From: a phage
Length of the DNA stretch: 50,255 bases
Sequence record: PV636259.1
Strand: one strand, 5' to 3'
The position numbers were made by a program, and so were the translations under genes. Positions 2,633 through 42,964 of this stretch are shown here, in pieces. The first letter of the stretch is position 1. Every line of letters starts with the position of its first letter. Below the pieces are notes generated by a model. The model saw only the letters and a list, made by a program, of their open reading frames with translations, was not told the DNA's origin and made no database searches.

Positions 2633-2635
2633 CAA

Positions 2636-3400: not shown

Positions 3401-3414
3401 CCCCCCTTAACCAG

Positions 3415-4035: not shown

Positions 4036-4054
4036 GTTTAGCAGAAAGTGCTAT
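4036..4054 (-). promoter_or_regulatory. Operator/promoter motif copy (minus orientation; AATAGCACTTTCTGCTAAAC) with downstream TATAGT and CATCAACAG leader
   Basis: Palindrome TAGCA-N5-TGCTA, then TATAGTTCTCCCATCAACAGAAAACGAGG, then the ATG of 3608..3979. Confidence 0.55.
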
Positions 4055-4240: not shown

Positions 4241-4255
4241 TTGTTAGCCTGTTAA

Positions 4256-4456: not shown

Positions 4457-4498
4457 TCTCGTTTCGATGAGGTAATTATGCCAAATCGCACCGATCGA

Positions 4499-4519
4499 GT
4501 TTTAACAAAAAGTGCTATT
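4499..4519 (-). promoter_or_regulatory. Operator/promoter motif copy (minus orientation; GAATAGCACTTTTTGTTAAAAC) overlapping the stop of 4502..5206
   Basis: Full-consensus motif read as reverse complement; followed by CATAAT and the conserved leader. Confidence 0.55.
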
Positions 4520-5206: not shown

Positions 5207-5268
5207 CGTGACTTCCTCTTCTGATTGGTTTATGAGCTGGACTATACACGATCTACCCGACCGAGTCG

Positions 5269-5286
5269 TTAGCGAAAAATGCTATT
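5269..5286 (-). promoter_or_regulatory. Operator/promoter motif copy (minus orientation; AATAGCATTTTTCGCTAA) upstream of the MTase-like gene
   Basis: Followed on the minus strand by TATAGT and ACCAATCAGAAGAGGAAG RBS region, then the ATG at 5206. Confidence 0.5.
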
Positions 5287-5471
5287 CCAATAATTGCTCA
5301 TTATTCCATCAATACTGGAATATCTGGAATAATTACGATCATGATTGATCTCGAATGATGAAATGTGATTGTTGCATGGTGTGCAACAGTTGGTTGATTT
5401 GTTGCTTAGATTGCAATGATTGTGAGAGGGTGGATTTGGTGTTACCCGGTTCGCCTGGTGGTCATCTCCAT

Positions 5472-5490
5472 TTTTAGCAAAACGTGCTAT
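5472..5490 (-). promoter_or_regulatory. Operator/promoter motif copy (minus orientation; ATAGCACGTTTTGCTAAAA)
   Basis: Second copy in the control region, about 200 bp upstream of the first in the minus direction. Confidence 0.45.
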
Positions 5491-5893
5491 CGATTACACT
5501 TTAACTTGTCACGATTGTAATATTTGTCTAGAATCGCACTTGTGACAAAATTACGCACTGTGACGCCCCACAATAGACATATGGATATATGTATATATAT
5601 AATATATATAGTGTTTTTTTATTTATATATATAGATAATTATATTGTAATAGTTGTGTATAGCCGTCTTACATTGTCTAGCGTACTGTTGGCATATTTCT
5701 ATCTGCATGTTTATATATACAGTACTTTTTTGAGAGTCATATATTTCTATGTGTACTCTAGACAGCTAGACAAATGTTACACAGCTTAAAATTGGCTCGC
5801 AGGCATTGACGGCCCTGCATTGCGCTGTCACAATGGCAATTGTTGACATGTTATGACACCATTTACACATCAATAGACAAATGAGGATGGATT

Positions 5894-8380: not shown

Positions 8381-8396
8381 CACTTTTTGTTAAAAC
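8378..8396 (+). promoter_or_regulatory. Operator/promoter motif copy (TAGCACTTTTTGTTAAAAC) + hairpin enclosing GATATAGT + CATCGACAACG leader
   Basis: Read directly. Confidence 0.6.
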
Positions 8397-8451
8397 GCGA
8401 TCATGTGGTTGCGATATAGTAACCACATCGACAACGAACGAGGACGAGAAC

Positions 8452-11487: not shown

Positions 11488-11490
11488 AAC
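11472..11490 (+). promoter_or_regulatory. Operator/promoter motif copy (TAGCACGAATTGCTAAAAC); hairpin GGGGAAT...ATTCCCC encloses GCTATGAT
   Basis: Read directly. Confidence 0.6.
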
Positions 11491-11544
11491 CTATCAAGGG
11501 GAATGCGCTATGATTCCCCTACACCAAAAAACGAGGGAACACTC

Positions 11545-12010: not shown

Positions 12011-12073
12011 TTGCTCAAGGGCATTTGGTAGAATGCCCTTCGTTGAGTTAAGCAACCAATCAGAGGAATCACT

Positions 12074-15276: not shown

Positions 15277-15300
15277 AACCCGCTTCGGCGGGTTTTTTTA
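15277..15300 (+). terminator. Rho-independent terminator (AACCCGCTTCGGCGGGTT + T7) closing the rightward early operon
   Basis: GC hairpin with GCTTCGGC tetraloop-like centre followed by TTTTTTT. Confidence 0.7.
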
Positions 15301-15319
15301 TGCCTGCAATATGGTAAAA

Positions 15320-15337
15320 TAGCACTAAATGTTAAAC
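15320..15337 (+). promoter_or_regulatory. Operator/promoter motif copy (variant TAGCACTAAATGTTAAAC) immediately upstream of terS
   Basis: Read directly; no hairpin between it and the terS RBS. Confidence 0.45.
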
Positions 15338-20700: not shown

Positions 20701-21177
20701 ATGGCACAAATTAATGCATCTTATCAGCGAGATATGGCGATTGCGCTTCCGGGTATGGTTGCGGATACTTCAAAGTACAATATTGACGGCGCTTGTGTCG
20801 TTAATGAAGGTGATGTTCTTGTTGGCGCTGCCGTACAAGTTGTTCAAGCTCAGGCGGTTGATGGTCATAAGTTGGTTAAGGCTCTTACTACCGGAACCAC
20901 TCCTTACGGCGTGGCAATCCGTTCTCACTGGCAGACTGTTAACGCTCAAAATCAGATGATTTACGAAGATGGCGGCGCTATCAACGTGATGACTTCAGGT
21001 CGAGTATGGATGCTTTCCAAATCCACCGAAGCACCAACTTTCGGCTCTGCCGTTAAACTTGATGTTGATGGTCAGGAAAAATCTGATGGCACGATCGAAA
21101 CAACCTGGACCTACGCTGGCGGTTGGACTAAATACAAAGATATTCAGCTTGTTGAGGTTCAGTTGCATCAACTGTAA
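20701..21177 (+). CDS. Capsid decoration-like protein, paralog A (158 aa)
   Basis: N-terminal region paralogous to 21240..22007 (shared DTSxYNIDGACV...GAAVQVV...TPYG(V/I)A(I/F)RS); followed by its own terminator. Confidence 0.5.
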   Translation: MAQINASYQRDMAIALPGMVADTSKYNIDGACVVNEGDVLVGAAVQVVQAQAVDGHKLVKALTTGTTPYGVAIRSHWQTVNAQNQMIYEDGGAINVMTSGRVWMLSKSTEAPTFGSAVKLDVDGQEKSDGTIETTWTYAGGWTKYKDIQLVEVQLHQL

Positions 21178-21192
21178 TTAGCGTTTAATATG

Positions 21193-21227
21193 GGGACTAT
21201 CCTTTTTTTGGATAGTCCTTTTTTTAT
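21193..21227 (+). terminator. Rho-independent terminator (GGACTATCC-T7-GGATAGTCC-T7)
   Basis: Perfect 9-bp stem with T-run loop and T-run tail. Confidence 0.7.
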
Positions 21228-21239
21228 GGAGAAATCATT

Positions 21240-22007
21240 ATGGCTTACGAAAATTTAATGTTGCGCCCGGCGTGTCCGGGAAATCTTTCTGATACTTCAA
21301 CCTACAATATTGATGGCGCTTGTGTGGCTCAAGGTGACATTGAGTTCGGCGCGGCGGTTCAGGTTGTCGGCATCGTTGATGGTGTGAAAGTCGTCAAAGT
21401 ACTTTCTGATGGCGGGACTCCTTACGGTATCGCTTTCCGTTCTCAATATGAACACCTGAGCGGTAAAATCTTAGACGGCGAAGTGTGCAACGTAGTTTCT
21501 CACGGTCGCATGTGGACGCTTACTTCTCTTGATGAGGCTCCCGACTTATTCTCAAAGTTGCAATTTGGATCTGGTGGCGTTGTTACTGGTGGATCTGGTT
21601 CCGCAGGTTGGACCTTCGCTGGTGGATTTGTTAAGCATGAAGACGGCTACATCATTGAGGTTCAGGTGAAACAAAATGCTTTCATCGTCCCACCGCCGCC
21701 ACCTCCAGTTGTTCTTGTTGAATCAGCTACGATCACTACCGACAAGGAAAGTCCTCAGCCGAACAATGTTACGATTCAGTGCGTAGCTAATGTTCTTCCT
21801 GTGAACGCTGATGATAAAACTGGCAAGTGGTCAATTGACGCCACCAACATCGCTACTATCGATCCTGACTCAGGTCTTGTAACTCCTGCTGGTGGAGAAT
21901 CGGTCGGTGATTTCAATATCACATGGACGGCTAACGATGCCAGCAAGACGACGGCAACCATTGCTTATCGCGTAGAAGCAGTGCCAGAGCCAGAGGTTGA
22001 TGCATAA
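21240..22007 (+). CDS. Capsid decoration-like protein, paralog B, with Pro-rich linker and C-terminal Ig-like (Big_2-type) domain (255 aa)
   Basis: N-terminal domain paralogous to 20701..21177; PPPPPPVVLV linker; C-terminal region with Big_2-like pattern (NVLPVNADDKTGKWSIDATNIATIDPDSGLVTPAGGESVGDFNITWTANDASKTTATIAYRV). Confidence 0.55.
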   Translation: MAYENLMLRPACPGNLSDTSTYNIDGACVAQGDIEFGAAVQVVGIVDGVKVVKVLSDGGTPYGIAFRSQYEHLSGKILDGEVCNVVSHGRMWTLTSLDEAPDLFSKLQFGSGGVVTGGSGSAGWTFAGGFVKHEDGYIIEVQVKQNAFIVPPPPPPVVLVESATITTDKESPQPNNVTIQCVANVLPVNADDKTGKWSIDATNIATIDPDSGLVTPAGGESVGDFNITWTANDASKTTATIAYRVEAVPEPEVDA

Positions 22008-22026
22008 CATAAAAACACTTTGACGC

Positions 22027-22045
22027 TTTAACAAAAAGTGCTATT
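22027..22045 (-). promoter_or_regulatory. Operator motif copy in reverse orientation (AATAGCACTTTTTGTTAAA) inside the late structural operon
   Basis: Read as reverse complement of TTTAACAAAAAGTGCTATT; lies between the decoration gene and a terminator. Confidence 0.5.
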
Positions 22046-22051
22046 ATTGAA

Positions 22052-22077
22052 GCCGTGAACATAATCACGGCTTTTTT
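22052..22077 (+). terminator. Rho-independent terminator (GCCGTGAACATAATCACGGC + T6)
   Basis: Read directly; precedes the major capsid gene RBS. Confidence 0.7.
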
Positions 22078-22098
22078 ATTAACTACGGAGAAGTAATC

Positions 22099-23058
22099 AT
22101 GACTACTAAAAAATTTGATGAAGCAGATAAAAGCAATGTTGAAATGTATCTGATCCAGGCTGGCGTAAAACAGGATGCAGCCGCAACAATGGGTATCTGG
22201 ACCGCTCAGGAACTACACCGCATTAAAAGCCAGTCCTATGAAGAAGACTACCCGGTCGGCTCCGCTCTACGCGTATTCCCGGTTACAACCGATCTTTCTC
22301 CGACTGATAAGACGTTCGAATACATGACCTTTGATAAGGTTGGCACGGCTCAGATTATCGCGGACTACACCGACGACCTGCCGCTTGTTGATGCCCTGGG
22401 TACTTCTGAGTTCGGTAAAGTGTTCCGTTTGGGTAACGCGTATCTGATCTCAATCGACGAAATCAAAGCGGGTCAGGCAACTGGTCGCCCACTGTCAACT
22501 CGTAAGGCAAGTGCATGTCAGTTAGCGCATGACCAACTGGTTAACCGTCTGGTGTTCAAAGGTTCCGCGCCGCACAAGATCGTGTCCGTGTTCAATCATC
22601 CGAACATCACCAAAATTACCTCCGGTAAGTGGATGGATGGCGCAACTCAGAAACCGGAAACGGCAGAAGCTGAATTGACTCAGGCAATCGAAACCATCGA
22701 GACGATTACTCGCGGTCAGCATCGTGCAACCAACATTCTGATCCCGCCGTCCATGCGTAAGGTATTGGCTATTCGTATGCCTGAAACCACCATGTCTTAC
22801 CTGGACTATTTCAAGTCTCAGAATGCTGGTATCGAGATCGACTCTATCGCAGAGCTTGAAGATATCGACGGCGCGGGTACTAAAGGTGTACTGGTTTACG
22901 AAAAGAACCCGATGAACATGTCCATCGAGATCCCGGAAGCATTCAACATGCTGCCAGCGCAGCCGAAAGACTTGCACTTTAAAGTGCCTTGCACCTCTAA
23001 GTGCACTGGTCTTACAATTTATCGCCCGATGACTATTGTCTTAATCACTGGCGTGTAA
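22099..23058 (+). CDS. Major capsid protein (319 aa)
   Basis: Size, position and flanking terminators; strong RBS GGAGAAG. Confidence 0.8.
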   Translation: MTTKKFDEADKSNVEMYLIQAGVKQDAAATMGIWTAQELHRIKSQSYEEDYPVGSALRVFPVTTDLSPTDKTFEYMTFDKVGTAQIIADYTDDLPLVDALGTSEFGKVFRLGNAYLISIDEIKAGQATGRPLSTRKASACQLAHDQLVNRLVFKGSAPHKIVSVFNHPNITKITSGKWMDGATQKPETAEAELTQAIETIETITRGQHRATNILIPPSMRKVLAIRMPETTMSYLDYFKSQNAGIEIDSIAELEDIDGAGTKGVLVYEKNPMNMSIEIPEAFNMLPAQPKDLHFKVPCTSKCTGLTIYRPMTIVLITGV

Positions 23059-23065
23059 TATTATA

Positions 23066-23092
23066 GGGGCTAACTTAGTTAGTCCCTTTTTT
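23066..23092 (+). terminator. Rho-independent terminator after the major capsid gene
   Basis: GGGGCTAACTTAGTTAGTCCC + TTTTTT. Confidence 0.65.
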
Positions 23093-23108
23093 ATTGGAGA
23101 AAATCAAA

Positions 23109-23396
23109 ATGGCTAAAGAAAAAACCGTTGTTATCGTAAACGTTGGTGTAGCTCTTCAGATGTTCCGTCTTGAAGATGGTTCCTTTGCTAAAGTCCTTCC
23201 AGATGAAGAGGTCACGCTTCCTGCATCCGTTCTTGATTTGCCCGGCCTGCGTTGCTTAATTGCTCGCGAAGAAATCGAAGTTAAAGACGATAGTGCAACT
23301 AACCGCAAAATCCGTGCTGAAATGGCAAAAATCACCAAGCCAGATCCGTGGGATAGCAAAAGCGTAAAAGAGCTTGAGGACGGCGGCGAATATTAA
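23109..23396 (+). CDS. Small head-associated protein (95 aa), flanked by terminators
   Basis: Track ORF trimmed to the ATG after GGAG; position between capsid and connector genes. Confidence 0.5.
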   Translation: MAKEKTVVIVNVGVALQMFRLEDGSFAKVLPDEEVTLPASVLDLPGLRCLIAREEIEVKDDSATNRKIRAEMAKITKPDPWDSKSVKELEDGGEY

Positions 23397-23402
23397 TCAT
23401 CA

Positions 23403-23427
23403 AGGCGCTCATGTAGCGCCTTTTTTT
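23403..23427 (+). terminator. Rho-independent terminator (GGCGCTCATGTAGCGCC + T7)
   Basis: Read directly. Confidence 0.65.
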
Positions 23428-23440
23428 ATGGGGGTAATTT

Positions 23441-23851
23441 ATGAATCAAGAAACTTTAATTGCAGTTGTTGAGCAAATGCGAAAGCTGGTTCCGGCACTT
23501 CGTAAGGTTCCAGATGAAACGCTTTATGCGTGGGTAGAAATGGCTGAGATTTTTGTATGCCAGAAGACCTTTAAAGACGCATACGTCAAAGCGCTCGCTC
23601 TTTATGCATTGCACCTTGCTTTCCTTGACGGGGCGCTAAAAGGTGAAGATGAGGATCTGGAATCGTACTCACGACGAGTTACGTCATTCTCCCTGAGCGG
23701 TGAATTTAGCCAGACTTTCGGAGAGGTTACAAAGAACCAGTCAGGGAACATGATGCTTTCGACGCCGTGGGGTAAGATGTTCGAACAGCTTAAAGCGCGA
23801 CGCCGTGGTCGATTCGCATTAATGACAGGACTCCGTGGAGGATGCCACTAA
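23441..23851 (+). CDS. Head-tail adaptor-like protein (136 aa)
   Basis: First of four small genes between capsid and major tail genes (adaptor, closure, completion, terminator by position). Confidence 0.45.
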   Translation: MNQETLIAVVEQMRKLVPALRKVPDETLYAWVEMAEIFVCQKTFKDAYVKALALYALHLAFLDGALKGEDEDLESYSRRVTSFSLSGEFSQTFGEVTKNQSGNMMLSTPWGKMFEQLKARRRGRFALMTGLRGGCH

Positions 23852-24222
23852 TGAACTACTCACAGATTGAAAGGATGGCTCGCAAAGGTGTGGCTTTCTT
23901 CACCGATCCGTCAAGACCTATGAACCTGATAAAGCAAGGTGAATACGGATATGATGAAAACGGATTCGAGATCCCACCGATGGAACAGGTTATTCCAATA
24001 TCCGGCGCGACGCGAAGACCGAACGCGCGTGAGATTGACGGGGAAACCATCCGCGCCTCAGATATTTTGGGGATCTTCAATAATGATCATGAAATAAACG
24101 AAGGTGACTATATAGAGATTGATGGCATTCGTCATGTTGTCGTTGATGCTCGCCCGGTTCAGGCGTCACTGGAACCAGTTGCCTATCGTCCAGTATTGCG
24201 GAGGGTATCAGTCGGTGGCTAA
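23851..24222 (+). CDS. Head closure-like protein (123 aa)
   Basis: Track ORF trimmed to the ATG overlapping the upstream stop, with GGAGGA RBS. Confidence 0.45.
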   Translation: MNYSQIERMARKGVAFFTDPSRPMNLIKQGEYGYDENGFEIPPMEQVIPISGATRRPNAREIDGETIRASDILGIFNNDHEINEGDYIEIDGIRHVVVDARPVQASLEPVAYRPVLRRVSVGG

Positions 24223-24658
24223 TTATCAGATTCGTAGATTTCAAGGCGAGATTGATGCGTGGATTAAGGCCGCTGAAAGCACGTTAGAACATGCCATTGA
24301 AATATTCGTAAGGGATGTTCACGACGCTCTTGTTAGCCGCTCCCCTGTTGATACAGGTCGATTCAAGGGTAACTGGCAGATAACTTTTAACGAAATCCCT
24401 AACCACGCATTAAACCGATACGATAAAACTGGCGGTGTCGTCAGAGGTGAGGAGCAGGCCAAAACTTATGGCATGTTCAGCCGTGGAGGTGCGATAACAT
24501 CAGTTCACTTTTCAAACATGTTGATTTATGCAAACGCTCTTGAGTACGGTCATTCACAGCAAGCGCCGAGCGGCGTTGTCGGTCTTGTGGCGTTAAGGCT
24601 GAGATCATATATGGCTGACGCAATCAAGCAGGCAAGGAGACAGCAAAATGCACTATGA
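24215..24658 (+). CDS. Tail completion-like protein (147 aa); GTG start inferred
   Basis: Track ORF 24119..24658 trimmed to the in-frame GTG 10 nt after GGAGGG; no in-frame ATG near the upstream stop. Confidence 0.4.
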   Translation: MANYQIRRFQGEIDAWIKAAESTLEHAIEIFVRDVHDALVSRSPVDTGRFKGNWQITFNEIPNHALNRYDKTGGVVRGEEQAKTYGMFSRGGAITSVHFSNMLIYANALEYGHSQQAPSGVVGLVALRLRSYMADAIKQARRQQNAL

Positions 24659-25046
24659 GTTATCAGCGGCGGCGCGAGCCGCTTTTCTATCAAAGTACAG
24701 AGACTTTCCTCACTACATGGAAAACAGAAATTTCACACCGCCGAAGGATGGCGGGATGTGGCTGAGGTTCAACTACATTGAAGGGGATACGCTTTATCTA
24801 TCCATTGACAGAAAGTGTAAATCTTACATCGCAATCGTTCAGATCGGCGTAGTGTTCCCTCCAGGCTCCGGCGTTGACGAAGCAAGATTGAAAGCAAAAG
24901 AGATTGCTGATTTTTTCAAAGATGGTAAAATGCTTAACGTTGGTTATATTTTCGAGGGTGCAATCGTGCATCAAATTGTTAAACATGAAAGCGGGTGGAT
25001 GATTCCGGTTCGCTTTACAGTACGAGTAGACACAAAGGAGACTTAA
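24648..25046 (+). CDS. Tail terminator-like protein (132 aa)
   Basis: Position immediately upstream of the major tail gene. Confidence 0.45.
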   Translation: MHYELSAAARAAFLSKYRDFPHYMENRNFTPPKDGGMWLRFNYIEGDTLYLSIDRKCKSYIAIVQIGVVFPPGSGVDEARLKAKEIADFFKDGKMLNVGYIFEGAIVHQIVKHESGWMIPVRFTVRVDTKET

Positions 25047-25048
25047 TT

Positions 25049-25717
25049 ATGCACTTACCAAATGGCGCACAAATTTTCGTGGAAACCTCTCGAGGGGTAG
25101 AGGTTGAGGCAACCGCTGTCACTAACGCAGAAAATCCTGTTGCTACAGTTGCATCTAAGGGTGACTTGGCAAAAGGTGATTACGTTATTGTAACTCAGTC
25201 AACTTGGGCAAAGATGGTTAGTCGAGTGCTAATTGTTACTGACGCTCAGGAAACAAGCATCACTCTTGCTGGAATTGACACCTCTGATACTCTTGTTTTC
25301 CCGGCTGGCGGCACAATGAGCTTCGCAAAAATTACTGGATGGACTGAGATCCCTTGCGTACAGGAGATTGGTCAGGACGGCGGTGAGCAGCAGTATTACA
25401 CTTATCAGTGTTTGTCCGACGATAAAGAGCAGCAGATCCCAACGTTTAAATCTGCGATCTCGCTAACGTACACTTTCGCGCACGAATTTGATAACCCGAT
25501 CTACCCTATTCTGCGTAAGCTGGATTCTTCCGGTCAGGTAACTGCGGTTCGGATGTATGTTCCAAAAGCGAACGAGATGCGCATGTGGGCTGGCATCTTG
25601 TCTTTTAACGACATTCCATCTACGCAAGTAAACGAAATGGAAACGGTACAACTCGCCGTATCCCTGAAAGGTGATTTTACTTTCGTCTCATCCACTCTGG
25701 CATCTCCAGATGCCTAA
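25049..25717 (+). CDS. Major tail (tube) protein (222 aa)
   Basis: Track ORF trimmed to the ATG after AAGGAG; position before chaperone and tape measure. Confidence 0.65.
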   Translation: MHLPNGAQIFVETSRGVEVEATAVTNAENPVATVASKGDLAKGDYVIVTQSTWAKMVSRVLIVTDAQETSITLAGIDTSDTLVFPAGGTMSFAKITGWTEIPCVQEIGQDGGEQQYYTYQCLSDDKEQQIPTFKSAISLTYTFAHEFDNPIYPILRKLDSSGQVTAVRMYVPKANEMRMWAGILSFNDIPSTQVNEMETVQLAVSLKGDFTFVSSTLASPDA

Positions 25718-25791
25718 ATCATATCCGCATGGGGGCTTGCGCCCCCTTCTTCATTTCTGTAAAATCATCGTATCAACTTTGCGCTCTTTGC

Positions 25792-25811
25792 TTTTAACAA
25801 AAAGTGCTATT
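25792..25811 (-). promoter_or_regulatory. Operator motif copy in reverse orientation (AATAGCACTTTTTGTTAAAA) directly upstream of the chaperone RBS
   Basis: Read as reverse complement of TTTTAACAAAAAGTGCTATT; followed on the plus strand by ACCAATCAGGAG and ATG. Confidence 0.5.
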
Positions 25812-25831
25812 AACCAATCAGGAGAAACATC

Positions 25832-26149
25832 ATGGCTAAATTCAATTTCGTGTTGGGCCAGCTTCCAGACTTCAAACTTCCGGTGACGTTCACCATGCCA
25901 AACGGCGAGGATGCAACTATTATTTTTACAGTGCGCCACCTTTCCAGTAAAGAAGTGCAAGATATGTATGCGAAGCAGGGCGAAATGAATGATAGCGATT
26001 TCATCACTAAGATCGCGTCAGGCTGGAATCTGGAAGAAGAATTTAACGAAGAGAATACGCGTAAACTGGTACAGTATTATCCTTCCGCAGCGTACAACCT
26101 GACGGCAACTTACATCAAGGCGCTTGCCGGACACCGCGCAAAAAACTAA
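25832..26149 (+). CDS. Tail assembly chaperone (G-like, 105 aa)
   Basis: Position immediately upstream of the tape measure; ends ...GCA AAA AAC TAA at a slippery heptamer. Confidence 0.7.
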   Translation: MAKFNFVLGQLPDFKLPVTFTMPNGEDATIIFTVRHLSSKEVQDMYAKQGEMNDSDFITKIASGWNLEEEFNEENTRKLVQYYPSAAYNLTATYIKALAGHRAKN

Positions 26150-26466
26150 AAAGGGCGGTTTATCTGTTATATCAGAAACCGCCGACAGAAGAGCAATTAC
26201 GATCGGTTGGCCTCAGTCTTTCTGACTATGAAGACGAGGAACCGGAAACGATAATCGGCGATACTGAAATGGTGAAGGCGTGGAATGTTTTTACGTCAAT
26301 GCTCACTCAGTGGAGAAGTTCAGGCGCTGGAGCTTATGGTCTTGACTATAATGTTTTGCCTATGTTGTTCAAAATCTATAAAATAGAAGATGAAGAACTG
26401 GCATTGCAGGACGTTAGAATCATGGAAGCGAAAGCGCTTGAAATGATTGCTAAGCAAAACAACTAA
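25832..26466 (+). CDS. Tail assembly chaperone GT-like fusion via programmed -1 ribosomal frameshift at A_AAA_AAC (26140..26146)
   Basis: The -1 frame is open from the slippery site through 26466 with no in-frame start codon before 26269, as in lambda G/GT. Confidence 0.55.
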
Positions 26467-26488
26467 GCCGCCGTTTGGCGGTTTTTTC
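26467..26488 (+). terminator. Terminator-like hairpin (GCCGCC GTTT GGCGG + T6) between chaperone and tape measure
   Basis: Read directly. Confidence 0.5.
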
Positions 26489-26504
26489 GTATATAGGGGG
26501 TTAT

Positions 26505-29378
26505 ATGGTTGATAAGGTAGCAGGTCTGTCGCTTGACGTTGATGTGTCAACAGTGCAGCGCGCCGTCAAGTCACTGAAAGAGTTTTCAAAGGCCAACGAC
26601 CAGGCCGCTGATTCTATGGGTTCTTTAATCAATGAGTCAGAGGTTGCAAAACAGAAGGCCAAAGAACACGCTGAACAACTCAGGCGCCAGAGAAAAGAGT
26701 ATGAGGCCGTGGAGAAGGCAATCGATCCTACAGTATCAAAAATGGAAAGGTTGAAGATTGCATCTCAGCAGCTTGATAAACTCTGGCAGCAGGGAGTCGT
26801 TCCAGATGAGACGTTTTTCCGTTTGGGTGAAATGCTGGATCTGCAAAACGCAAAACTTGCTCGCAGCCGGGCTATGCTTACGGAAGAAGGTCAGGCGGCA
26901 TTGCAGGAAGCGAAAGCAAAAGAGCAGGCGGCAGCACGAAGCAAGGCGTTCATGGATGCCCTGAATGGTCAAGTTAACGCGATCGGCAAGACTCATGCTG
27001 AATTGATGGAACTGAAAGCGGCTGAGCTTGGTTTATCGAAAGAAGCAGCACCACTAATCGCAAAACTTAAAGATCAAGGCCGGGCTATGAATGCAGCAGG
27101 TATTAGCGCCGGGGAATACAGGCAAGCAATGCGAATGCTTCCTGCACAGATTACCGACGTCGTTACATCTCTTGCGTCCGGCATGCCAGTTTGGATGGTT
27201 GCCATCCAGCAAGGCGGTCAAATCAAGGACTCGTTCGGCGGGATTGGTAATACGTTTAAAGTGTTGCTGAGTTATATTAATCCAGTCACAGCAGGTATTG
27301 GCGTTCTTGTTGGTTCGTTAGGTCTTCTGGCGAAAGCTGGTTATGACTCTTACAAGTCAATAACTGATATTCAGAATGCGCTTATTGAGACTGGCGGTTA
27401 TGCAGGTGTTACGGCTGAAGATCTTGATTCAGTGTCTAAAAAGATCGCGCAGACAAGTAACTCAACCATTGGGAGTATTCGCGATATTGTAACGGAGTTG
27501 GCGAGTTCTGGTAAGTACACCCGCGAGCAGATCCAGAACATCACTAAGGCTACCGCAGAGTGGTCAGCGTCAACAGGAAAATCAGCAAGTCAAATTATTT
27601 CTGAGTTCGACAAAATCGCAAGCGATCCGGTAAAAGGCCTGAAGAAGTTAAACGAGCAATATAATTTCCTTGAAAAAGGGCAGCTTACCTATATCGATAC
27701 ATTAAGCCGGACGAAAGGAGAAACTGAGGCTGTATCAGAGGCTACCAAACTATTCGCAGACGTAATGGAAAAGCGAATGAAGTCGATCGCGGATAACGCT
27801 ACTCCTCTGGAAAAGATGTGGAGCGATATTAAACAATGGGCTTCGGACGCGTGGGGATGGGTGGGTGATCATACACTCGGGGCGCTAAACCTGATTATCG
27901 ACGTTGTTCAGGGTACAGTGATTCAGGTTAAAATGATTCTTGCTAAGGGTGATGAGTATATCTCAAACTTTATCGCCTCAGCCATAAAGGCAACTCAGTC
28001 ACTGCCTGGAATGAGTAATTTCGGCGCTGATGTACTGAAGGAGCAGGAGAATATTGTAAAAAGTTCTCGCGACAACTACGATCAGTTAGCTTCAGAGCTT
28101 GACGCTATTAACGCTCGTGTAGAAAAAGGAGAGATGGGATACATTGAAGCAATGAGGCAGCGTCGCACTCTTGAAAAGCAGTACAGCGAGGAAACTAAGG
28201 AGGCAATAAGGAAAGAAGCAGAAGAGATCGAGAAGCGAAACCGAGAACGAAATAAGCAGTCGAAAATTGTACGCTCACCGACAGAGCAATTCGACAAGGA
28301 GTTAATTTCACTCAAGGCTCAACTTAAGGTATTGCAGGAGCACAAGGAGATCGGGCAAAAACTTTCCGCACAGAGAAAGGCGTTGTTTACAACTGAGGCT
28401 ACGATCGCTGTTCTTCGCGAAGCCAGCTCTAAGCGTCAGTTGTCTGCGGAAGAAAAAGCGTTGCTGGCAAGTCAGGAGAGAGTTATTGAGCTTGCAAAAC
28501 AGAAGGCCGAGATTGGCGATCAGATTGTTAAGCAACAACAGTTGAATGATCTTACCGATAAATCTCTGAAGTTTGTCAATGAGATGACAGCGGCGACAGA
28601 ACAGCTTAACGCGTCACGCGGTCTTAGCACGCGCGAAATGGAACGACAAGCGGAACTGGCTAAAATAACCACTGATTACATCAACTCTGGAGGTAGTGAG
28701 GGAGACGAAAAACTACAGAACATGATCAAGGCACAAAATGATTACTATGCTGCGGAAGATGCCAAGCGCGCTGACTGGTTAGCTGGTGCTGAAAGCGCAT
28801 TTGCAGATTACGGCGATTCTGCAATGGATATGTACGGCAACGTGTATGATATCGCGTCAAGTTCACTTAACGGAATGAGTGATATGATGACCCAATTCCT
28901 TACTACAGGTAAGGCAAATTTTGAGGACTTTGCGAAAAATATCATTAGCATGATTATCAAGATGATTGCTCAGATGGTAATCTTCAATACGATCTCAGGC
29001 ATGACGGGAGGTAAGACATGGAGTTTTGCAAGTGGATTGACCTCTAGCGCTTCTGCGGCATCACAGGCAACTCCTACGCCTGCCGTCTCTGGTTTTAGGT
29101 CTTTATCTTCAGGCGTTGCCGTTACCTCGCTTGCTGCCGCTGCGGGTAGTGTTGCAACCTCTGGATTTAACGCATCTAAATCCGCACCGAAGGCAGCGAA
29201 CCAGTCAGCAGGCGGGACGGTCGTTGATGTTAGGGGTATGGAGGTTAAAGTTGACAACGGTTCAGATCCGAGAGGGATTTCTCAGGGCGTAGAAATGATG
29301 TTCAAAAAAATGATTCGAGAGTCTTGTTCGCAGGGCGGTGAGGTTTACAATTACATTCAGGAAAAAACAGGAGGCTAA
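26505..29378 (+). CDS. Tail tape measure protein (957 aa)
   Basis: Length, coiled-coil-rich composition, hydrophobic Gly/Ala/Ser-rich C-terminal third; start set to the ATG after AGGGGG. Confidence 0.85.
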
Positions 29379-29380: not shown

Positions 29381-29734
29381 ATGGCGGCACTTGATACTTT
29401 CAGTTGGTGTACGCAGGTTCAAGGGGGCGGCGGCTCCCTTACCACTACCAACAATGACAGATCCATACAGTTTGGTAACGGATACATGCAGCTTGCATCT
29501 TCTGGATTTAACACCACTCGGCGCGAGTATTCAGTTGTCTATGCTGGGGAAGATTTCATGGCTGTTTACGACTTCTGCGATTCTCACCGCATCAAGCCGT
29601 TCGCATGGACGCCTCCAGACGGGAAGGTCGGGATATGGGTAGTTAAGCCAAATAGTTTGGGAGCGAAACCAGTATCACGCGACGTGATGGAAATTAATGT
29701 AACGTTTATGGAGCAGTTTACATCTATGGAATAG
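29381..29734 (+). CDS. Minor tail protein (lambda M-like, 117 aa)
   Basis: Size and position immediately after tape measure. Confidence 0.6.
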   Translation: MAALDTFSWCTQVQGGGGSLTTTNNDRSIQFGNGYMQLASSGFNTTRREYSVVYAGEDFMAVYDFCDSHRIKPFAWTPPDGKVGIWVVKPNSLGAKPVSRDVMEINVTFMEQFTSME

Positions 29735-29747
29735 CACTTCATGACAA

Positions 29748-29772
29748 AAGCCCGCCTTGCGCGGGTTTTTTT
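29748..29772 (+). terminator. Rho-independent terminator (CCCGCCTTGCGCGGG + T7); stem identical to the one at 31928
   Basis: Read directly. Confidence 0.7.
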
Positions 29773-29813
29773 GTAGCTGTAGAATGGTTGCAACTAAACA
29801 AGAGGAAAAGACA

Positions 29814-31927: not shown

Positions 31928-31952
31928 AACCCGCCTTGCGCGGGTTTTTTTT
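31928..31952 (+). terminator. Rho-independent terminator (CCCGCCTTGCGCGGG + T8), followed by TGTATAATG extended -10
   Basis: Read directly. Confidence 0.7.
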
Positions 31953-32000
31953 CGCCTGTATAATGAGTCCACCAATAAATAGCACAAAAAGGTAAACATC

Positions 32001-36667: not shown

Positions 36668-37193
36668 TCGTGTGTCCTCGTCTTTAGTGTGATTGCATTG
36701 TATGTCGCATTTACTTTTATTGCAATAGTTCGATTACAATTTTTTCGTGTAACAGGTGTCTATTTTTGTAACCGGGAGGTGTGTTACAAAATCGACCTCA
36801 TTCGACCGCAGGGAGATATGATAAAAACTCTATATAATATATATAGATAGATAATATTTAATTTTAGCTTTATATATATAATTATTGTTGTGTAACAGTT
36901 GTATATCGTGTAACAGGTGATTTGATTGATTCGTCAAATTTCTATCATATTTGTTCAAAATATAATCAATCTTGATTCTATTCATGGATATCTGTGTATT
37001 TCTAAGAAAAAGCGGTTACAAGTATTACGAAATAGACACCACATAAAAACAGGATTAAGCCATTGATTCTGTTGATGCTGATTGTAACTTGAGCGATATA
37101 GACACGCTATTACACACCAATTACATGTATCCGATTGACTAAACGCTGTTAATGGCTATAATGGATTCATCGTAAACGAAGGAGATAAGCGCA
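36668..37193. promoter_or_regulatory. Second AT-rich divergent control region (upstream of cor/receptor-binding genes leftward and the recombination operon rightward)
   Basis: No ORFs; GTGTAACAG repeats at 36746..36758, 36889..36898 and 36907..36919 plus inverted TGTTACAC at 36781..36788; 16-bp TATATAATATATATAG (36831..36846) identical to 5596..5611. Confidence 0.6.
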
Positions 37194-38258
37194 ATGTTCC
37201 AGGTATTCACATCAAGTCAGCTTTCTAATGACGAGTATCATAGCAACGAAGGTTGGGCGGCAGAGTATGTAAGCGGATCGAGCCTTGCAGAAATTTATCA
37301 AACTTGCCCGGCTAACTGGCGATTCAAGAAGAACGAGACTACTAAAGCGCTGGAGTTCGGTACTCAGTCGCACACTAACTTTGAGAGTCGAGATCTGTTT
37401 ACTGCAACGTATGCGCGTTGTCCTGCTCCGTCAGAGTTTAAAGATCTTATTACTTCGCAAACGGCACTGGCAGCAAAATTAAAATCTTTTGGCCTGAAAG
37501 GTACATCCGGTAAGCAGTACCCTGACCTCATCAAAATGATGGTTGATTGCGGTGAAGATCTCAATGTTCAATATCTTATTGAACTGATTGCTGAAGCTGA
37601 GGCGCGCGCTGAAGGAAAGCAACTGGTTGACGCTGATAAATATGATGCCTGTATGAAGATGAGGGCCATTCTTGAGCAAAATCCCGATCATGAAGCGTGC
37701 ATCAATAGCGAAACTGCGCAGCGTGAGATCTCAATCTTCGGTGAGATATCCGGCGTAAAGGTTAAGGTTAGACTTGACCATCTGGACTACAAAGAGAATG
37801 TACCAGGTCGTGTGCTGACTGGTTATGATGAGAATGGAGATCCGGTATTCGAAGACGTTATTTTCCCGGAAGCACTGATTATCACCGACTTCAAAACAAC
37901 GATGAGCGCAAATCCGTTGGAGTTCCCGCGCCTTGCATATAATCACGGGTATTATCTGAAAATGGCCTTGCAGCATGATCTGCTACGACGCGCAATCCAG
38001 GCTGGCGCTTTTGAAGGCAACTTCCCTGAAGATATCCCGATCGTAGTTAGATTGCTTGCGCAGGAGAAAAAAGAGCCTTATATCGCACTGGCTTACCGTA
38101 TGACTATGGAGCAAATCAGGATCGGTCGTAACCAGTACATTAGCGTAGTCCACACTTACAAGGCTTGCTCTGAAATGGATATTTGGCCTGGGTACGCTGG
38201 CGACGCAAGCGAGATCGAACTTGAAACGCCATCATGGGTGCGTTACCAAAATAAGTAA
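37194..38258 (+). CDS. PD-(D/E)xK-type exonuclease (354 aa)
   Basis: IITDFKTT matches the D-x-K-T nuclease motif; followed by Erf and SSB. Confidence 0.6.
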   Translation: MFQVFTSSQLSNDEYHSNEGWAAEYVSGSSLAEIYQTCPANWRFKKNETTKALEFGTQSHTNFESRDLFTATYARCPAPSEFKDLITSQTALAAKLKSFGLKGTSGKQYPDLIKMMVDCGEDLNVQYLIELIAEAEARAEGKQLVDADKYDACMKMRAILEQNPDHEACINSETAQREISIFGEISGVKVKVRLDHLDYKENVPGRVLTGYDENGDPVFEDVIFPEALIITDFKTTMSANPLEFPRLAYNHGYYLKMALQHDLLRRAIQAGAFEGNFPEDIPIVVRLLAQEKKEPYIALAYRMTMEQIRIGRNQYISVVHTYKACSEMDIWPGYAGDASEIELETPSWVRYQNK

Positions 38259-39447: not shown

Positions 39448-39475
39448 AAAGCCCCGCAATGCGGGGCTTTTCTTT
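39448..39475. terminator. Bidirectional rho-independent terminator (AAAGCCCCGCAATGCGGGGCTTTT)
   Basis: Between convergent ssb (plus) and tail fiber (minus). Confidence 0.7.
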
Positions 39476-41321
39476 ATGATTGTTTAAGTGATTTTATTTC
39501 TTCTTTTAGAGAAGATACTTGCTTTGAAAGCTCCTGTATCGAAGCTATAGCGTCAAGCAAAAGAACATTCTCATCCAGTGATAGCGTGTAATCTTCTCCA
39601 TTCATATTTCCGTACTTTCTAACGTACTGACTATCTATGCTCATAAGTTGTTGAGCTATGAACCCTCTCCTTACAGTTTTCTCCTTGTCATAATTGTATG
39701 TGAATGATCGGTATTTCATTTTCATCAAATTGTCAAGCGCCAATCTTGTTTCAATATCCTTTATGTCGCTTTTAAGTCTCTCATCTGACACTGGAGACTT
39801 GGAAAATATATAGTTGACAGTACCTGAGTTATTCCCAAACGTTATGTCGTAACTCTCAGCGTTGAACGATGTATTCCTTACAATGTCACCGTTTGGCTGA
39901 TTACCTGAAGCTATATCATAATCGTACACCTGAGATATTACCGCGTGAGGGTGAGAACCATCTGGAAAAATAAGCGAACCAAGAGAGATAAAATTCCTCC
40001 AACCGCCGTTGGATACACCAACGCCGCCACCAACTAGACCAATATAACCGCTGTACTGAGAACTCATCCATGTGTTAGCCAATGTCAAATAGGTATTACC
40101 TGGAGCATATCCAGTTCCATTTGGTACTAGACCCTTGTTAAAAATCAACTTTCCGTCCAGTTTGAAATCCCACGTTGCCGCGCCCTGCTTATATCTGTCA
40201 TTGATTGTTGTTATCCTTGTCCATATATCTATTTCATTACCTCCCTGCAATTCGAAAGAGGATCTGTACTTATCAACTTCACCAACCTTGAATTTTGAAT
40301 CAATCCTGCCGCCTGAAGAATCGGAACCTCTTGGCGGCTCAGAGTCTACATTTTTATAAATAGACCAGTCGTTTACTTTTAGGCCTTTCTCAACCCAACC
40401 CTTAGTAGTTGCGTCCATGTTGCCTTCAGGATCTTTAAGTAACTCTAATGGGGCGTCTGGCCTCAAGTTTTTCCATGATTCTAATTTATCCACAAGACCA
40501 GCTAGATTTCCATCCTTAGTTAAAAGGTTTTCAGCATTAACGCTATTTACTGCGTCTTTCGCTTCCTGAGCACTTACCGCCGCCGCATTTTTTGCGCTTA
40601 CCGCATTGTCACGCGCTACCTGAGCGTCATTTTTTGCAGAGGTCGCAGTTTGTGCTGCCGTTTGAGCGTCATTAACGTAACCAGATAAATCACCTTTCGC
40701 GTCATTAATGGCCTGAATCGCTGCCGCCTCTTCAGTGTCAATGTGAGTGATGACAGATGATTCCTTAGATCCTATATCAGTAATAGCCTGATCCTTTGCT
40801 GCATTAATACTACCTACAGCACCGTCAACAATTTGTTGAGTCTGGTTCTTGATTGAGTTAGTTTCATCTCGTGCAGCGTTGGCTGCGTCACGCGCTAATT
40901 CAGCCTGATTTTGCGCAGCTTGAGAATCAGATTTCGCCTGATTCACCTCAGCAACTATTTGCTCAAGTTTATCCATATCAAGCTGATTGATGATATCAAG
41001 AGCCGCAGCAATCTCAGTTTCTTTGCTCTGGTAGTATCGCAGCGTTTCAGCAACGTTTTGAGCTAAGCCATTTACAGTCAGTGAATCGTTAAGCAGGATC
41101 ACATACTTACCGTCAGCAGCAGTCTGACCATCCGTAGAGATAGCCTTTAACTCAGTGTCGCTCACGATATCGCTGATTACAGCCAGCTTAATTGGTTGCT
41201 CTAGGAATACGATAGTTGCACCTACTCGAATCAGAGCAAGCTGATCCTTCCATTTTGTATCGGTTCCGAGAACCGTTCCATCCGCATCCATTGATGCTGT
41301 ACCGCGTCTATATAAAGCCAT
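39474..41321 (-). CDS. Tail fiber protein with C-terminal intramolecular chaperone (peptidase S74-like) domain, 615 aa
   Basis: N-terminal virion-attachment-like region, long Ala/Gln-rich coiled coil, Gly-rich beta region, C-terminal SDERLKSDIKDIE...RRGFIAQQL... segment typical of autoproteolytic chaperone domains. Confidence 0.65.
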   Translation of the reverse strand: MALYRRGTASMDADGTVLGTDTKWKDQLALIRVGATIVFLEQPIKLAVISDIVSDTELKAISTDGQTAADGKYVILLNDSLTVNGLAQNVAETLRYYQSKETEIAAALDIINQLDMDKLEQIVAEVNQAKSDSQAAQNQAELARDAANAARDETNSIKNQTQQIVDGAVGSINAAKDQAITDIGSKESSVITHIDTEEAAAIQAINDAKGDLSGYVNDAQTAAQTATSAKNDAQVARDNAVSAKNAAAVSAQEAKDAVNSVNAENLLTKDGNLAGLVDKLESWKNLRPDAPLELLKDPEGNMDATTKGWVEKGLKVNDWSIYKNVDSEPPRGSDSSGGRIDSKFKVGEVDKYRSSFELQGGNEIDIWTRITTINDRYKQGAATWDFKLDGKLIFNKGLVPNGTGYAPGNTYLTLANTWMSSQYSGYIGLVGGGVGVSNGGWRNFISLGSLIFPDGSHPHAVISQVYDYDIASGNQPNGDIVRNTSFNAESYDITFGNNSGTVNYIFSKSPVSDERLKSDIKDIETRLALDNLMKMKYRSFTYNYDKEKTVRRGFIAQQLMSIDSQYVRKYGNMNGEDYTLSLDENVLLLDAIASIQELSKQVSSLKEEIKSLKQS

Positions 41322-41342
41322 AGTATAAACTCCTTAAGTAAA

Positions 41343-41360
41343 TAGCACGAATTGCTAAAC
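41343..41360 (+). promoter_or_regulatory. Operator motif copy (TAGCACGAATTGCTAAAC) in plus orientation between two minus-strand genes
   Basis: Read directly; orientation opposite to the flanking genes. Confidence 0.5.
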
Positions 41361-41401
41361 GCTGATTTTATCATTGTGCTATCCGACTTGCAATGGACAA
41401 T

Positions 41402-41424
41402 AAAAAACCGCCAGAAGGCGGTCA
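41402..41424 (-). terminator. Rho-independent terminator downstream of primase (minus strand: ACCGCCTTCTGGCGGT + T6)
   Basis: Plus strand shows AAAAAACCGCCAGAAGGCGGT; primase stop lies in the 3' arm. Confidence 0.65.
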
Positions 41425-42357
41425 GAGTAGGTCACTTGCTGAGAATAACTTGGCTTGCATTCCTGAGCGGTATCCTCCAGGATTTGGGATGATTATTTTT
41501 AATTGTCGGTCGTCTGCCATGTATAAAGTCTCCTTGTCTGAAGGTTCGCACGCAACCCTTACTTCTCGATCCCCTTTATATCTGTATGCAACCATTTCCA
41601 GATTCTCAGGAGTGAAGCAGGCCCATACCTCTTGCTTTGTGTGAAATGCAATATGCTGAGCATCAATCCAATTAAGGCATAAGTAGATCGCTTTTTCTGT
41701 TTTACCAGTCACGGCAACCGAGCAACTTGTGTATTTCTTAGCGTAAAATGACTCCCTACCCTCCTCATCAATAATCAAAATATTACAAAACTCATCATCA
41801 AGACCGTCCTCGTGTACAAGTTGACATGGTATGGTGTGAAATACGCTCTCGCCGCCATCCTCGCGACGTTTTACGCCAACGTCGAATGATTCAGTAGGTA
41901 GAGATTCAAACATGCTTAGAGGTGTGTTTACGCGCTTCTCTGTACGCTCCATGACTTTCATCACCGCTTCATGATCTGCCATCATGACATTGACACCAGA
42001 TACCGGAGTTCGGCGCGCTTTCTTGTTTGCCTTGACGATGTATTCCTGCGGAACTTTTCCGAGAAATCTTCCCAGGATATTTATGCATTCGCTATACGGC
42101 ATACCAGTTAATTTCATTAGCCACCCGATCCCGGAGTCGTTACCGCATGAGTTGCAGATCGCACCTCCGTCGCCCGGAGTGTTCAGGTTATCAGTCCAGC
42201 GAAAGCGGTCTTTACCTCCGCAGTTAGGGCAAGGTTGGTGCTTCTTATTAAAAACATCATTCGGCAATCCGCAGATTGATTGGAAAGCCTCGCGCCATAA
42301 CCCCTTCATGTACGGCAAAACGTCCTCTTTCTGAAACATCATAAATTCTTCGTTCAC
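41422..42357 (-). CDS. DNA primase (zinc-binding + TOPRIM-like), 311 aa
   Basis: CPNCGG...CNSCGN zinc motif near the N-terminus; acidic IIIDEEGRES segment; position next to the helicase. Confidence 0.6.
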   Translation of the reverse strand: MNEEFMMFQKEDVLPYMKGLWREAFQSICGLPNDVFNKKHQPCPNCGGKDRFRWTDNLNTPGDGGAICNSCGNDSGIGWLMKLTGMPYSECINILGRFLGKVPQEYIVKANKKARRTPVSGVNVMMADHEAVMKVMERTEKRVNTPLSMFESLPTESFDVGVKRREDGGESVFHTIPCQLVHEDGLDDEFCNILIIDEEGRESFYAKKYTSCSVAVTGKTEKAIYLCLNWIDAQHIAFHTKQEVWACFTPENLEMVAYRYKGDREVRVACEPSDKETLYMADDRQLKIIIPNPGGYRSGMQAKLFSASDLL

Positions 42358-42370
42358 TTCCAGATCTCCA

Positions 42371-42415
42371 AAATAAAAAACGCGTAGAAGGATGTTAACC
42401 CGCTACGCGTCGTTT
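42371..42415. terminator. Hairpin ACGCGTAG...CTACGCGT flanked by A-run and T-rich tail (bidirectional terminator-like)
   Basis: Read directly between the HTH gene and primase. Confidence 0.5.
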
Positions 42416-42416
42416 G

Positions 42417-42436
42417 TTTTAACTAAAAATGCTATT
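42417..42436 (-). promoter_or_regulatory. Operator motif copy (minus orientation; AATAGCATTTTTAGTTAAAAC) forming the last six codons of the HTH gene
   Basis: N-S-I-F-S-stop is encoded by AATAGCATTTTTAGTTAA. Confidence 0.5.
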
Positions 42437-42871
42437 GGTCGTTCCGATATCTTCCTTCTTCACGACGCGCATAAATTTCTTGTTCTTGCATCGCTTCTCA
42501 AGGCACTTGCCGTTACCGTCAAACTTCAGGTCGAATCGCAACCATGCGGCACGAAATCCTTTGCACCCCTGTCGGCGGTAAGCGCGATGCGCAGCTTCAG
42601 CGCCTTGCCATGAAATCATATTTCGATCTTTCCAGCCTTGCACCGTCTGATTGCTAACTTTTAGAGCCTTTGCGCAGGCCGCAGGGCCGCCGTAATATTC
42701 GATAAGAGCATCAAGTCGCGCTCGCAGTCCGGCGCGTGTTTCTTCTTTATGAATATAGAACCCGCAACGCTGTCGAGGCTTTTTATCTTTACCGCGCCGT
42801 GTTCCGTTGTTACCATTGATGTGACGTTTATCGATTTCACCAGTTGACTCTGCGATACGTTGAATACTCAT
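42419..42871 (-). CDS. Putative DNA-binding protein with helix-turn-helix segment (150 aa)
   Basis: AKALKVSNQTVQGWKDRNMISWQGAEAA resembles Cro/CI-type HTH; basic N-terminus. Confidence 0.5.
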   Translation of the reverse strand: MSIQRIAESTGEIDKRHINGNNGTRRGKDKKPRQRCGFYIHKEETRAGLRARLDALIEYYGGPAACAKALKVSNQTVQGWKDRNMISWQGAEAAHRAYRRQGCKGFRAAWLRFDLKFDGNGKCLEKRCKNKKFMRVVKKEDIGTTNSIFS

Positions 42872-42884
42872 CTTGATTCTCCTA

Positions 42885-42904
42885 TAGCACTTTTTGCTAA
42901 AAAC
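42885..42904 (+). promoter_or_regulatory. Operator/promoter motif copy (TAGCACTTTTTGCTAAAAAC) upstream of the helicase
   Basis: Read directly in the 93-bp divergent gap. Confidence 0.55.
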
Positions 42905-42964
42905 GTTTACTTTATGCCGTGTATTATAGCGTAAACGTTACAACGATTCAAAGGATTAATAGCC

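Follow-up and report, generated by a model that had tools for sequence, protein, structure and literature searches.

Drexlerviridae direct repeats at the late promoters of a T1-like phage as candidate operators of a Cro-like regulator

How does a phage such as T1, which belongs to the seven classic T phages and is notorious as a laboratory contaminant, order early and late transcription, which to our knowledge it does without a polymerase or sigma factor of its own? The question is raised by the phage sequence record PV636259.1 (50,255 nt, hereafter the window), in which copies of a 21-nt direct repeat (DR) point against the neighboring gene at the genes for the major capsid protein, a tail assembly chaperone and a tail fiber. 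Over the 8-kb stretch around these sites, the window shares 97.6% identity with Escherichia phage ADB-2 and 95.9% with phage T1, and it thus represents a T1-like virulent siphophage (Drexlerviridae, Tunavirus). We lean, with somewhat more belief than doubt, toward a reading in which the DRs are operators of a phage-encoded Cro-like regulator that would activate transcription when bound near −42 and repress it where a DR overlaps a promoter.

The DR family, with consensus aaATAGCACnnnTTGnTAAAA, was described in the re-annotation of phage TLS (German et al., 2024; PMC11447400) and is said there to be present also in T1, Rtp and Rogue1. The 21 copies of TLS are oriented with transcription and precede start codons by about 76 nt, and the authors left their function open between stoperators, enhancer-binding sites and UP elements (PMC11447400). 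Table S1 of that study lists one copy, DR7, that lies on the opposite strand, upstream of the capsid gene and immediately ahead of terminator T35; its orientation passes without comment, and it is the homologue of site 1 below. A full-text literature search with the motif string returned unrelated primer matches only.

In the window, the 20-mer TTTAACAAAAAGTGCTATTA occurs exactly at 22027–22046 (site 1) and 25793–25812 (site 2) of the plus strand, where an earlier note, made from the letters alone, had placed two copies in the structural block, in the same orientation. At up to 3 mismatches, this 20-mer has 11 matches in the window and none in 100 shuffles, which rules out chance occurrence. 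A scan with the consensus AATAGCACNNNTTGNTAAAA (up to 3 mismatches over 16 specified positions) finds 24 copies. Compared with aaATAGCACnnnTTGnTAAAA over the 16 specified positions, site 1 (22026–22046, minus strand) has one mismatch, site 2 (25792–25812, minus strand) none and a third copy (41341–41360, plus strand) one. The consensus orientation of sites 1 and 2 is the minus strand, against the plus-strand structural genes, and the third copy is, as the note had it, plus-oriented between two minus-strand genes. None of the three has the published placement, as they point against the gene and lie 53 nt (site 1) or 20 nt (site 2 and third copy) from the ATG. What is odd about them is this direction relative to the neighboring gene and not, as had been proposed, an orientation opposite to the early-arm copies, since the left-arm copies (1904–5472) are also on the minus strand. 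The palindromic core ascribed to the sites is imperfect: it reads TAACA-N5-TGCTA at sites 1 and 2 (4 of 5 positions match) and TAGCA-N5-TGCTA in the third copy. The latter dyad is perfect in some DR copies, with asymmetric flanks.

Repeats in two promoter settings

What distinguishes an ordinary DR? Among about 50 DR copies from the window, TLS and Rtp, which represent three subfamilies, an nAnnnT hexamer lies exactly 19 nt downstream of the repeat in 50 copies, most commonly TATAGT (14 copies) and next CATAAT (7). TGn often stands before the hexamer, and a conserved start region and leader, cAtc.AAA, comes after it. As the best match to TTGACA at a distance of 16–18 nt averages 2.52 of 6 positions, compared with 2.48 for random sequence, these promoters have no −35 element. 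When the hexamer is placed at −12 to −7, the DR spans −51 to −32 and its imperfect dyad (TAGCA-N5-TGnTA) is centered near −41/−42, a geometry that suggests the site of a class II activator. The TTGnTA inside the DR was rejected as a −35 because it is 22 nt away from the −10. Dam (GATC) sites fall within 8 of 50 promoter spacers, compared with about 8% expected, too weak a signal.

Site 1 occupies a different position. It lies between a cement/Ig-like decoration gene (21240–22007; Pfam Phage_cement plus Big_2) and the major capsid protein gene (22099–23058, plus strand; 98% identical to the T1 protein), within a predicted sigma70-type promoter for the latter, P_MCP (22020–22047, plus strand). 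With its −35 TTGACG at 22020–22025, a 16-nt spacer with a TGc extended −10 and the −10 TATTAT at 22042–22047, P_MCP is the best promoter-like match that our scan found in 21000–27000 (10 of 12 positions, TG present), and the T1 record AY216660 has a predicted plus-strand promoter annotated at this position. The start is predicted near 22054. The reversed repeat forms the spacer and extended −10 and covers about −28 to −8, and its dyad is centered near −18, a classic repressor position. In 63 IMG/VR loci around capsid homologues (57–100% identity), a reversed copy stands at the site 1 position in 58 of the 61 that were informative, and TTGNNN, 16 nt with TGn, and TAnnnT recur in 54 of 60 unique upstream regions. 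In these relatives the −35 varies among TTGACG, TTGCAC, TTGAAC and TTGACC and the −10 among TATTAT, TATCAT, TATATT and TATTCT. The spacer remains a DR even where the repeat subtype switches, as in Klebsiella-phage-like loci (GTTTAGCAATTCGTGC), which is more than an extended −10 alone would require.

Could the repeat simply be a cis element for the host machinery, serving RNA polymerase as an extended −10 at site 1 and ribosomes as an unstructured, A/U-rich translational enhancer in leaders? The reversed repeat does supply gTGcTAT, an extended −10, at site 1, relatives in which the repeat is broken (the L020 group) retain the −10, and a related possibility, the UP element, was raised by the TLS authors (PMC11447400). 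An extended −10, however, needs only 3–5 bases, whereas the whole 16-nt spacer is kept as a repeat across the subtype switch, and the invariant G/C-containing blocks (ATAGCAC, TTG) held at a fixed −42 in ordinary copies are not UP-like. We regard this explanation as unlikely; its bearing on leaders is taken up below.

Downstream of site 1, beginning 2–3 nt past the P_MCP −10, is a hairpin (22049–22074) that with its T run (22049–22080, plus strand) was called by a terminator scan. It has a 10-bp stem followed by TTTTTT, a folding energy of −15 kcal/mol and a z-score of −5.3, as expected of an intrinsic terminator, and its stems covary in relatives. This hairpin belongs to the decoration gene, and not to the capsid gene as had been supposed in describing site 1 as lying just before a major capsid terminator. 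Since the predicted P_MCP start lies inside the 5′ arm of the hairpin, capsid transcripts should escape termination; RNA folded from that start reaches only −5.3 kcal/mol, compared with −15 for the full hairpin. It is likely that transcripts from the decoration gene stop here and capsid transcripts do not. Just upstream of the −35 is an A-rich element, CATAACAYAAAAAC (22003–22019, plus strand), which is conserved across genera in an anchored alignment. It could be a UP-like element or an ATAGCAC-type half-site.

The third copy shows a related arrangement. After the terminator of the primase gene (terminator 41423–41406; gene 41422–42357, both minus strand) lies a promoter (41365–41393, minus strand; TTGCAA, 17-nt spacer, TGa TAAAAT) that was called by the promoter and terminator scan. 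It is followed by 4 nt (in the window), the reversed repeat at about −2 to +18, AAGGAG and the ATG at 41321 of the tail-fiber gene (39474–41321, minus strand), the product of which ends in a Peptidase_S74 chaperone domain (Pfam). The same order is found in 28 unique relatives, which belong to several genera, with the repeat (counted from the 20-mer) 5–9 nt after the −10 and a −10 of the form TGnTAnAAT or TGCTATAAT. We also noticed an ATAGCAC-like half-site 27 nt from the GTGCTAT end of the reversed repeat both at site 1 (ATAACAT, 22003–22019) and at the third copy (ATAGCAC, minus strand, 41371–41377); the equal spacing may be coincidence or may mark a second binding half-site.

If repeats overlap the capsid and fiber promoters, are other late promoters free of them? 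Every late promoter that we could recognize (terS, capsid, chaperone/tape measure, L, J and fiber) has a repeat or half-repeat between −52 and +40, and no copy has the fixed 19-nt relation to the promoter of the adjacent gene. The presence of a DR or half-DR at terS, L and J as well was counted in favor of operators. Four late promoters, those before the chaperone, L-like, J-like and terS genes, share a terminator-promoter module (25731–25765, 29757–29785, about 31935–31965 and 15283–15318) consisting of TTGCGC within the terminator loop and 3′ arm, exactly 17 nt and CTG TAnAAT, with TTCGGC replacing TTGCGC at terS; the −35 of the next promoter is thus built into the preceding terminator. At terS the repeat (15318–15337, plus strand) is forward, covers about +1 to +20 of the module and abuts the ribosome-binding site, a placement conserved in Tunavirinae relatives. 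Because this copy occupies the same leader position in the opposite direction, operator-type copies are not always reversed, and reverse orientation, by which the earlier note set the sites apart, is not their defining property. Leader copies are reversed at the chaperone, fiber and regulator genes and forward at terS and J.

Two further copies deserve mention in their own right. A forward repeat at 29730–29749, centered near −52, precedes the module of the L-like tail gene, and a half-repeat (AATAGCAC only) at 31978–31997, the homologue of TLS DR8, abuts the start codon in the leader of the J-like tail-fiber gene.

The position of leader copies invites explanations at the level of RNA. For the translational-enhancer version of the cis element, the copies lie within 0–9 nt of a ribosome-binding site, but they occur in both orientations, which no single RNA-level signal explains. 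Alternatively, the reversed leader copies could pair over about 20 nt with forward copies on read-through transcripts of the non-structural operons, giving duplexes beside the ribosome-binding site that would block translation or trigger cleavage. In support, the forward copies at 4500, 6678 and 8376 are complementary to sites 1 and 2 without a mismatch, those at 11470 and 13487 are complementary to the third copy, and leader copies abut ribosome-binding sites. Such pairing nevertheless strikes us as highly improbable, since the transcript predicted to start at P_MCP would not include site 1, forward copies stand in the leaders of terS and J, transcription of the forward copies would have to be assumed and the fixed 19-nt promoter geometry would be left unexplained.

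Site 2 and its predicted antisense promoter

Site 2 lies in the leader of the gene for the tail assembly (tape measure) chaperone (25832–26149, plus strand), which we identified by a Pfam match to Phage_TAC_4 (E = 2e-37) and by the T1 annotation. The repeat lies 9 nt upstream of GGAG, with the ATG at 25832, in agreement with the suggestion that it directly precedes the ribosome-binding site of the gene. The chaperone promoter, P_TAC, belongs to the terminator-promoter module that follows the major tail gene (25731–25765, plus strand): the −35 TTGCGC (25737–25742) is in the loop and 3′ arm of a hairpin at 25731–25746, the spacer is 17 nt and the −10 is TAAAAT (25760–25765). With a predicted start near 25772, the repeat covers about +21 to +40.

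Viewed from the other strand, the same repeat has all the parts of an ordinary one. A minus-strand −10, TACGAT (25767–25772), lies 19 nt downstream of it, which places the leftward start near 25760 and the repeat at −51 to −32. In relatives (31 loci carrying site 2, with 25–28 unique sequences), the order is constant: the major-tail terminator, TTGCGC in its loop and 3′ arm, 17 nt, TAnAAT, one base, the complement of TAnnnT, 19 variable bases, the reversed repeat, 0–9 nt and a ribosome-binding site. The rightward TAnAAT and TTGC are kept in all 28 unique relatives with site 2, and the leftward TAnnnT keeps its 19-nt distance in every unique relative (25 of 25 by one count, 28 of 28 by another), with variable middle bases and usually TGn before it. 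This pattern supports the view that site 2 is a complete repeat-type promoter predicted to fire leftward, antisense to the tail genes. The copy at the chaperone gene is found in about half of related loci and is absent from TLS-like and Klebsiella-phage-like loci.

As the rightward and leftward −10 elements are back-to-back, 1 nt apart, polymerase on either must exclude polymerase on the other. RNA started leftward would pass through the terminator hairpin, where this strand lacks a T run, and continue into the major tail gene from its 3′ end. We found no conserved product, no conserved antisense open reading frame and no Rfam RNA for this transcript, and Rfam detected no known RNA family anywhere in the window. 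The rightward leader RNA folds at −0.6 kcal/mol and is less structured than 193 of 200 shuffles; this counts for an unstructured cis element, and it led us to reject the idea that the repeat acts as a hairpin in the leader.

Are all of the reversed copies, then, primarily antisense promoters, such that antisense RNA or colliding polymerase delays late expression? Site 2, with its 19-nt spacing and TAnnnT in every unique relative, usually after TGn, is what such an explanation predicts. Elsewhere the antisense strand looks different: TAnnnT is at the 19-nt register in just 2 of 45 unique sequences at site 1 and in none of 28 at the third copy, and no −35/−10 pair was found on that strand at either, so that both were rejected as antisense promoters. 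Even at site 2 the antisense side does not have the conserved leader of the family and meets a hairpin that lacks a T run. As a general account, therefore, this seems to us very unlikely. Of the two functions offered in the earlier note for the reversed copies, antisense promoters can be upheld for site 2 only, where the statement that no TATAGT-like element follows also fails; that statement is correct for site 1 and the third copy. The other suggestion, bare sites that repress or time late genes, fits the anatomy best, except that the sites are not bare but lie within or just downstream of conserved host-type late promoters.

A side observation concerns the sequence that follows site 2. A second conserved leader, AACCAATCAG(G)AG, is found at 25812–25824, before the chaperone gene, and also at 2350–2362, 12040–12055 and other places, before unrelated genes.

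A Cro-like gene with a repeat in its leader

Which protein might bind the repeats? A candidate is encoded at 42419–42871 (minus strand), a 150-aa protein with a Cro-type helix-turn-helix core that is homologous to T1 gp23, TLS gp57 and Rtp52. Its match to Pfam P22_Cro (E = 5e-5) is below the curated cut-off. In Foldseek, an AlphaFold2 model of the protein (pLDDT 83.7) matches all-alpha Cro proteins best among PDB entries, one of them N15 Cro in complex with its operator (target-normalized TM 0.71–0.73, probability about 1, E about 0.01). The basic N-terminal segment is very conserved in the family.

The gene is preceded on the minus strand by a sigma70-type promoter, P_reg (42923–42951; TTGAAT, 17-nt spacer, TATAAT), which is the best promoter-like match in 41000–43200 (10 of 12 positions). 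After 20 nt comes a reversed repeat (42902–42883), at about +15 to +34, which abuts the ribosome-binding site (GGAG) that precedes the ATG. The same repeat, read on the plus strand (42883–42902), takes the −42 position at the helicase promoter, which is divergent from P_reg and has a −10 (TATTAT, 42922–42927, plus strand) that overlaps that of P_reg in 5 of 6 bp. One repeat is thus shared by two divergent promoters. Since the regulator protein as a single query retrieved close relatives only, we examined 79 helicase-anchored loci in its place. The layout holds down to about 61% helicase identity, the helicase TATTAT is 18–19 nt from the repeat in 42 of 44 unique sequences and the P_reg TATAAT is kept in most repeat-carrying loci, a few others differing from it by one base (TATACT or TAGAAT, for example). 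In TLS, P57, DR11 and gp57 match this arrangement, and P57 was annotated independently as a sigma70 promoter by the TLS authors. Repeats are present in all 73 loci with a regulator homologue (in one truncated locus, only at 3 mismatches), and the six loci without a homologue have no DRs. The co-occurrence of the repeat with a conserved Cro-like gene of autoregulatory layout also speaks against a mere cis element for the host.

At its other end, the regulator gene runs into the promoter of the primase gene. The repeat of that promoter (42417–42436, minus strand) extends over the final codons of the regulator gene and its stop codon, and the ATAGCA part of the repeat encodes the conserved C-terminal STNS of the family. 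The −10 of the primase promoter, TAACAT, falls within the terminator loop of the regulator gene.

Several other features of repeat promoters came to our attention. In many of the ordinary promoters an inverted repeat flanks the −10 and would place it in a loop, for example at 8396–8430, 11490–11525, 2350–2385 and many other places in the window and also at loci L002 and L003. The arms vary by promoter, as in ATGTGGTT..TATAGT..AACCACAT and AAGGGC..TAGAAT..GCCCTT. The longest perfect stem averages 4.6, compared with 3.62 when arms are re-paired between promoters (the maximum of 200 controls being 3.9). As the 3′ arm ends at the predicted start, the hairpin would be confined to DNA or read-through RNA. 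A near-consensus sigma70 promoter without a repeat (37135–37195; TTGACT-16-TATAAT), corresponding to TLS P51, serves the recE-like exonuclease gene. It has the conserved start and leader ATCGTAAACGAAGGAG in common with repeat promoters, which supports the start position that we assumed for the latter. Finally, where the minus-strand left arm and the plus-strand genes diverge (5472–5534), the DR copy TTTTAGCAAAACGTGCTATC, reversed with respect to the plus strand, is 14 nt upstream of a good sigma70-type promoter (TTGTCA-17-TAGAAT), which would put the center of the repeat at about −60. Farther along, at 5590–5620, is an AT-rich stretch of low complexity.

A proposed circuit and its relation to known systems

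The reversed copies are kept in position and orientation across several Drexlerviridae genera, so the lack of conservation in relatives that the earlier note named as grounds for refutation is not seen. The anatomy and conservation of these promoters and repeats are observed, and from them we infer that a protein binds, whether it activates or represses, and when. In the circuit that we propose, the Cro-like protein (42419–42871) would be made from its own sigma70 promoter, would bind DRs and would recruit RNA polymerase at −42 sites. Where a DR lies over a core promoter, start site or leader, the bound protein would block or outcompete polymerase, at its own promoter as well, resulting in autoregulation. 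At site 2, interference could run via the activated antisense promoter.

Several points weigh against operators of this kind. The DR at site 1 is broken by a 1-nt insertion at loci L020, L028 and L065, all of which keep the −10, and the Rtp capsid promoter (TTGCGT-16-TATAAT) has a spacer without a DR, so the promoter is older and more constant than the repeat; site 1 could therefore owe part of its conservation to selection for the promoter itself. P_TAC matches the −35 consensus at 3 of 6 positions and was not called by the promoter scan. An imperfect dyad with constant orientation at ordinary promoters is unusual for the site of a symmetric dimer. Gene position and a single phylogenetic split are weak evidence for the link between regulator and DRs, repression is read from position alone, and the proposal gives late promoters no route of release from repression. 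The searchable literature yielded no binding, footprint, transcription start, transcriptome or expression data for any T1-like phage.

A more ambitious version, which we think quite unlikely, would make one Cro-like protein and about 24 repeats the whole temporal program. The protein would activate the −35-less non-structural promoters from −42 and shut its own gene and the sigma70 late promoters (terS, capsid, chaperone/tape measure and fiber), with site 2 serving as an activator-driven antisense decoy that excludes polymerase. The late switch would come about as the autorepressed protein is titrated by repeat copies that multiply on replicating DNA.

How would operators of a Cro-like protein compare with known systems? 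In the lambda right operator, where CI and Cro act on PR and PRM, a small helix-turn-helix protein activates from about −42 and represses a divergent promoter through one operator, as a protein on the repeat between the regulator and helicase genes could, and the modeled core of the regulator matches Cro structures. However, the lambda operator is tripartite, whereas the virulent window phage has single sites, about 24 in number, scattered over its genome; the regulator has extra N- and C-terminal regions, the −10 hexamers of the divergent pair share 5 of 6 bp and binding by the regulator is putative. The C1 repressor of phage P1 is one regulator that controls many operons from many dispersed single asymmetric operators, as proposed here, but it acts only as a repressor, in a temperate phage, and has no known sequence or fold relation to the window regulator. 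Ordinary DR promoters also resemble class II promoters, with CRP or FNR sites centered at −41.5, in that the dyad is near −41/−42, the −35 is missing and the −10 is good and often extended. They differ in that the factor is probably phage-encoded and the DR is strongly asymmetric and of fixed orientation. The stoperators bound by gp71 of mycobacteriophage L5 (Brown et al., 1997, cited in PMC11447400) are like DRs in being many scattered copies of one asymmetric site, some in transcribed leaders, in a position for bound protein to halt elongation. In contrast to DR leader copies, which have both orientations, L5 stoperators have one orientation relative to transcription and serve the immunity repressor of a temperate phage, and most DR copies in the window look like activator sites.

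The DR motif family is already published, and the feature described here is real, conserved and regulatory. The published repeats (PMC11447400) belong to the same sequence family, to which our sites match at 0–1 mismatches. Those repeats run with transcription, whereas the odd copies of the window point against the gene and overlap sigma70-type promoters. As far as we found, the placement of repeats at predicted sigma70-type late promoters, the conserved putative antisense promoter at site 2 and the apparent autoregulatory layout of the regulator gene have not been described.

What the present analysis adds is that ordinary copies occupy a fixed activator position at −35-less promoters and that odd copies lie on conserved host-type capsid, tail and fiber promoters, with the same layout at a Cro-like gene. 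The proposed circuit would thereby become concrete for the whole phage family, including the Klebsiella phages of therapy work, and DR promoters and operators would be defined parts for engineering.

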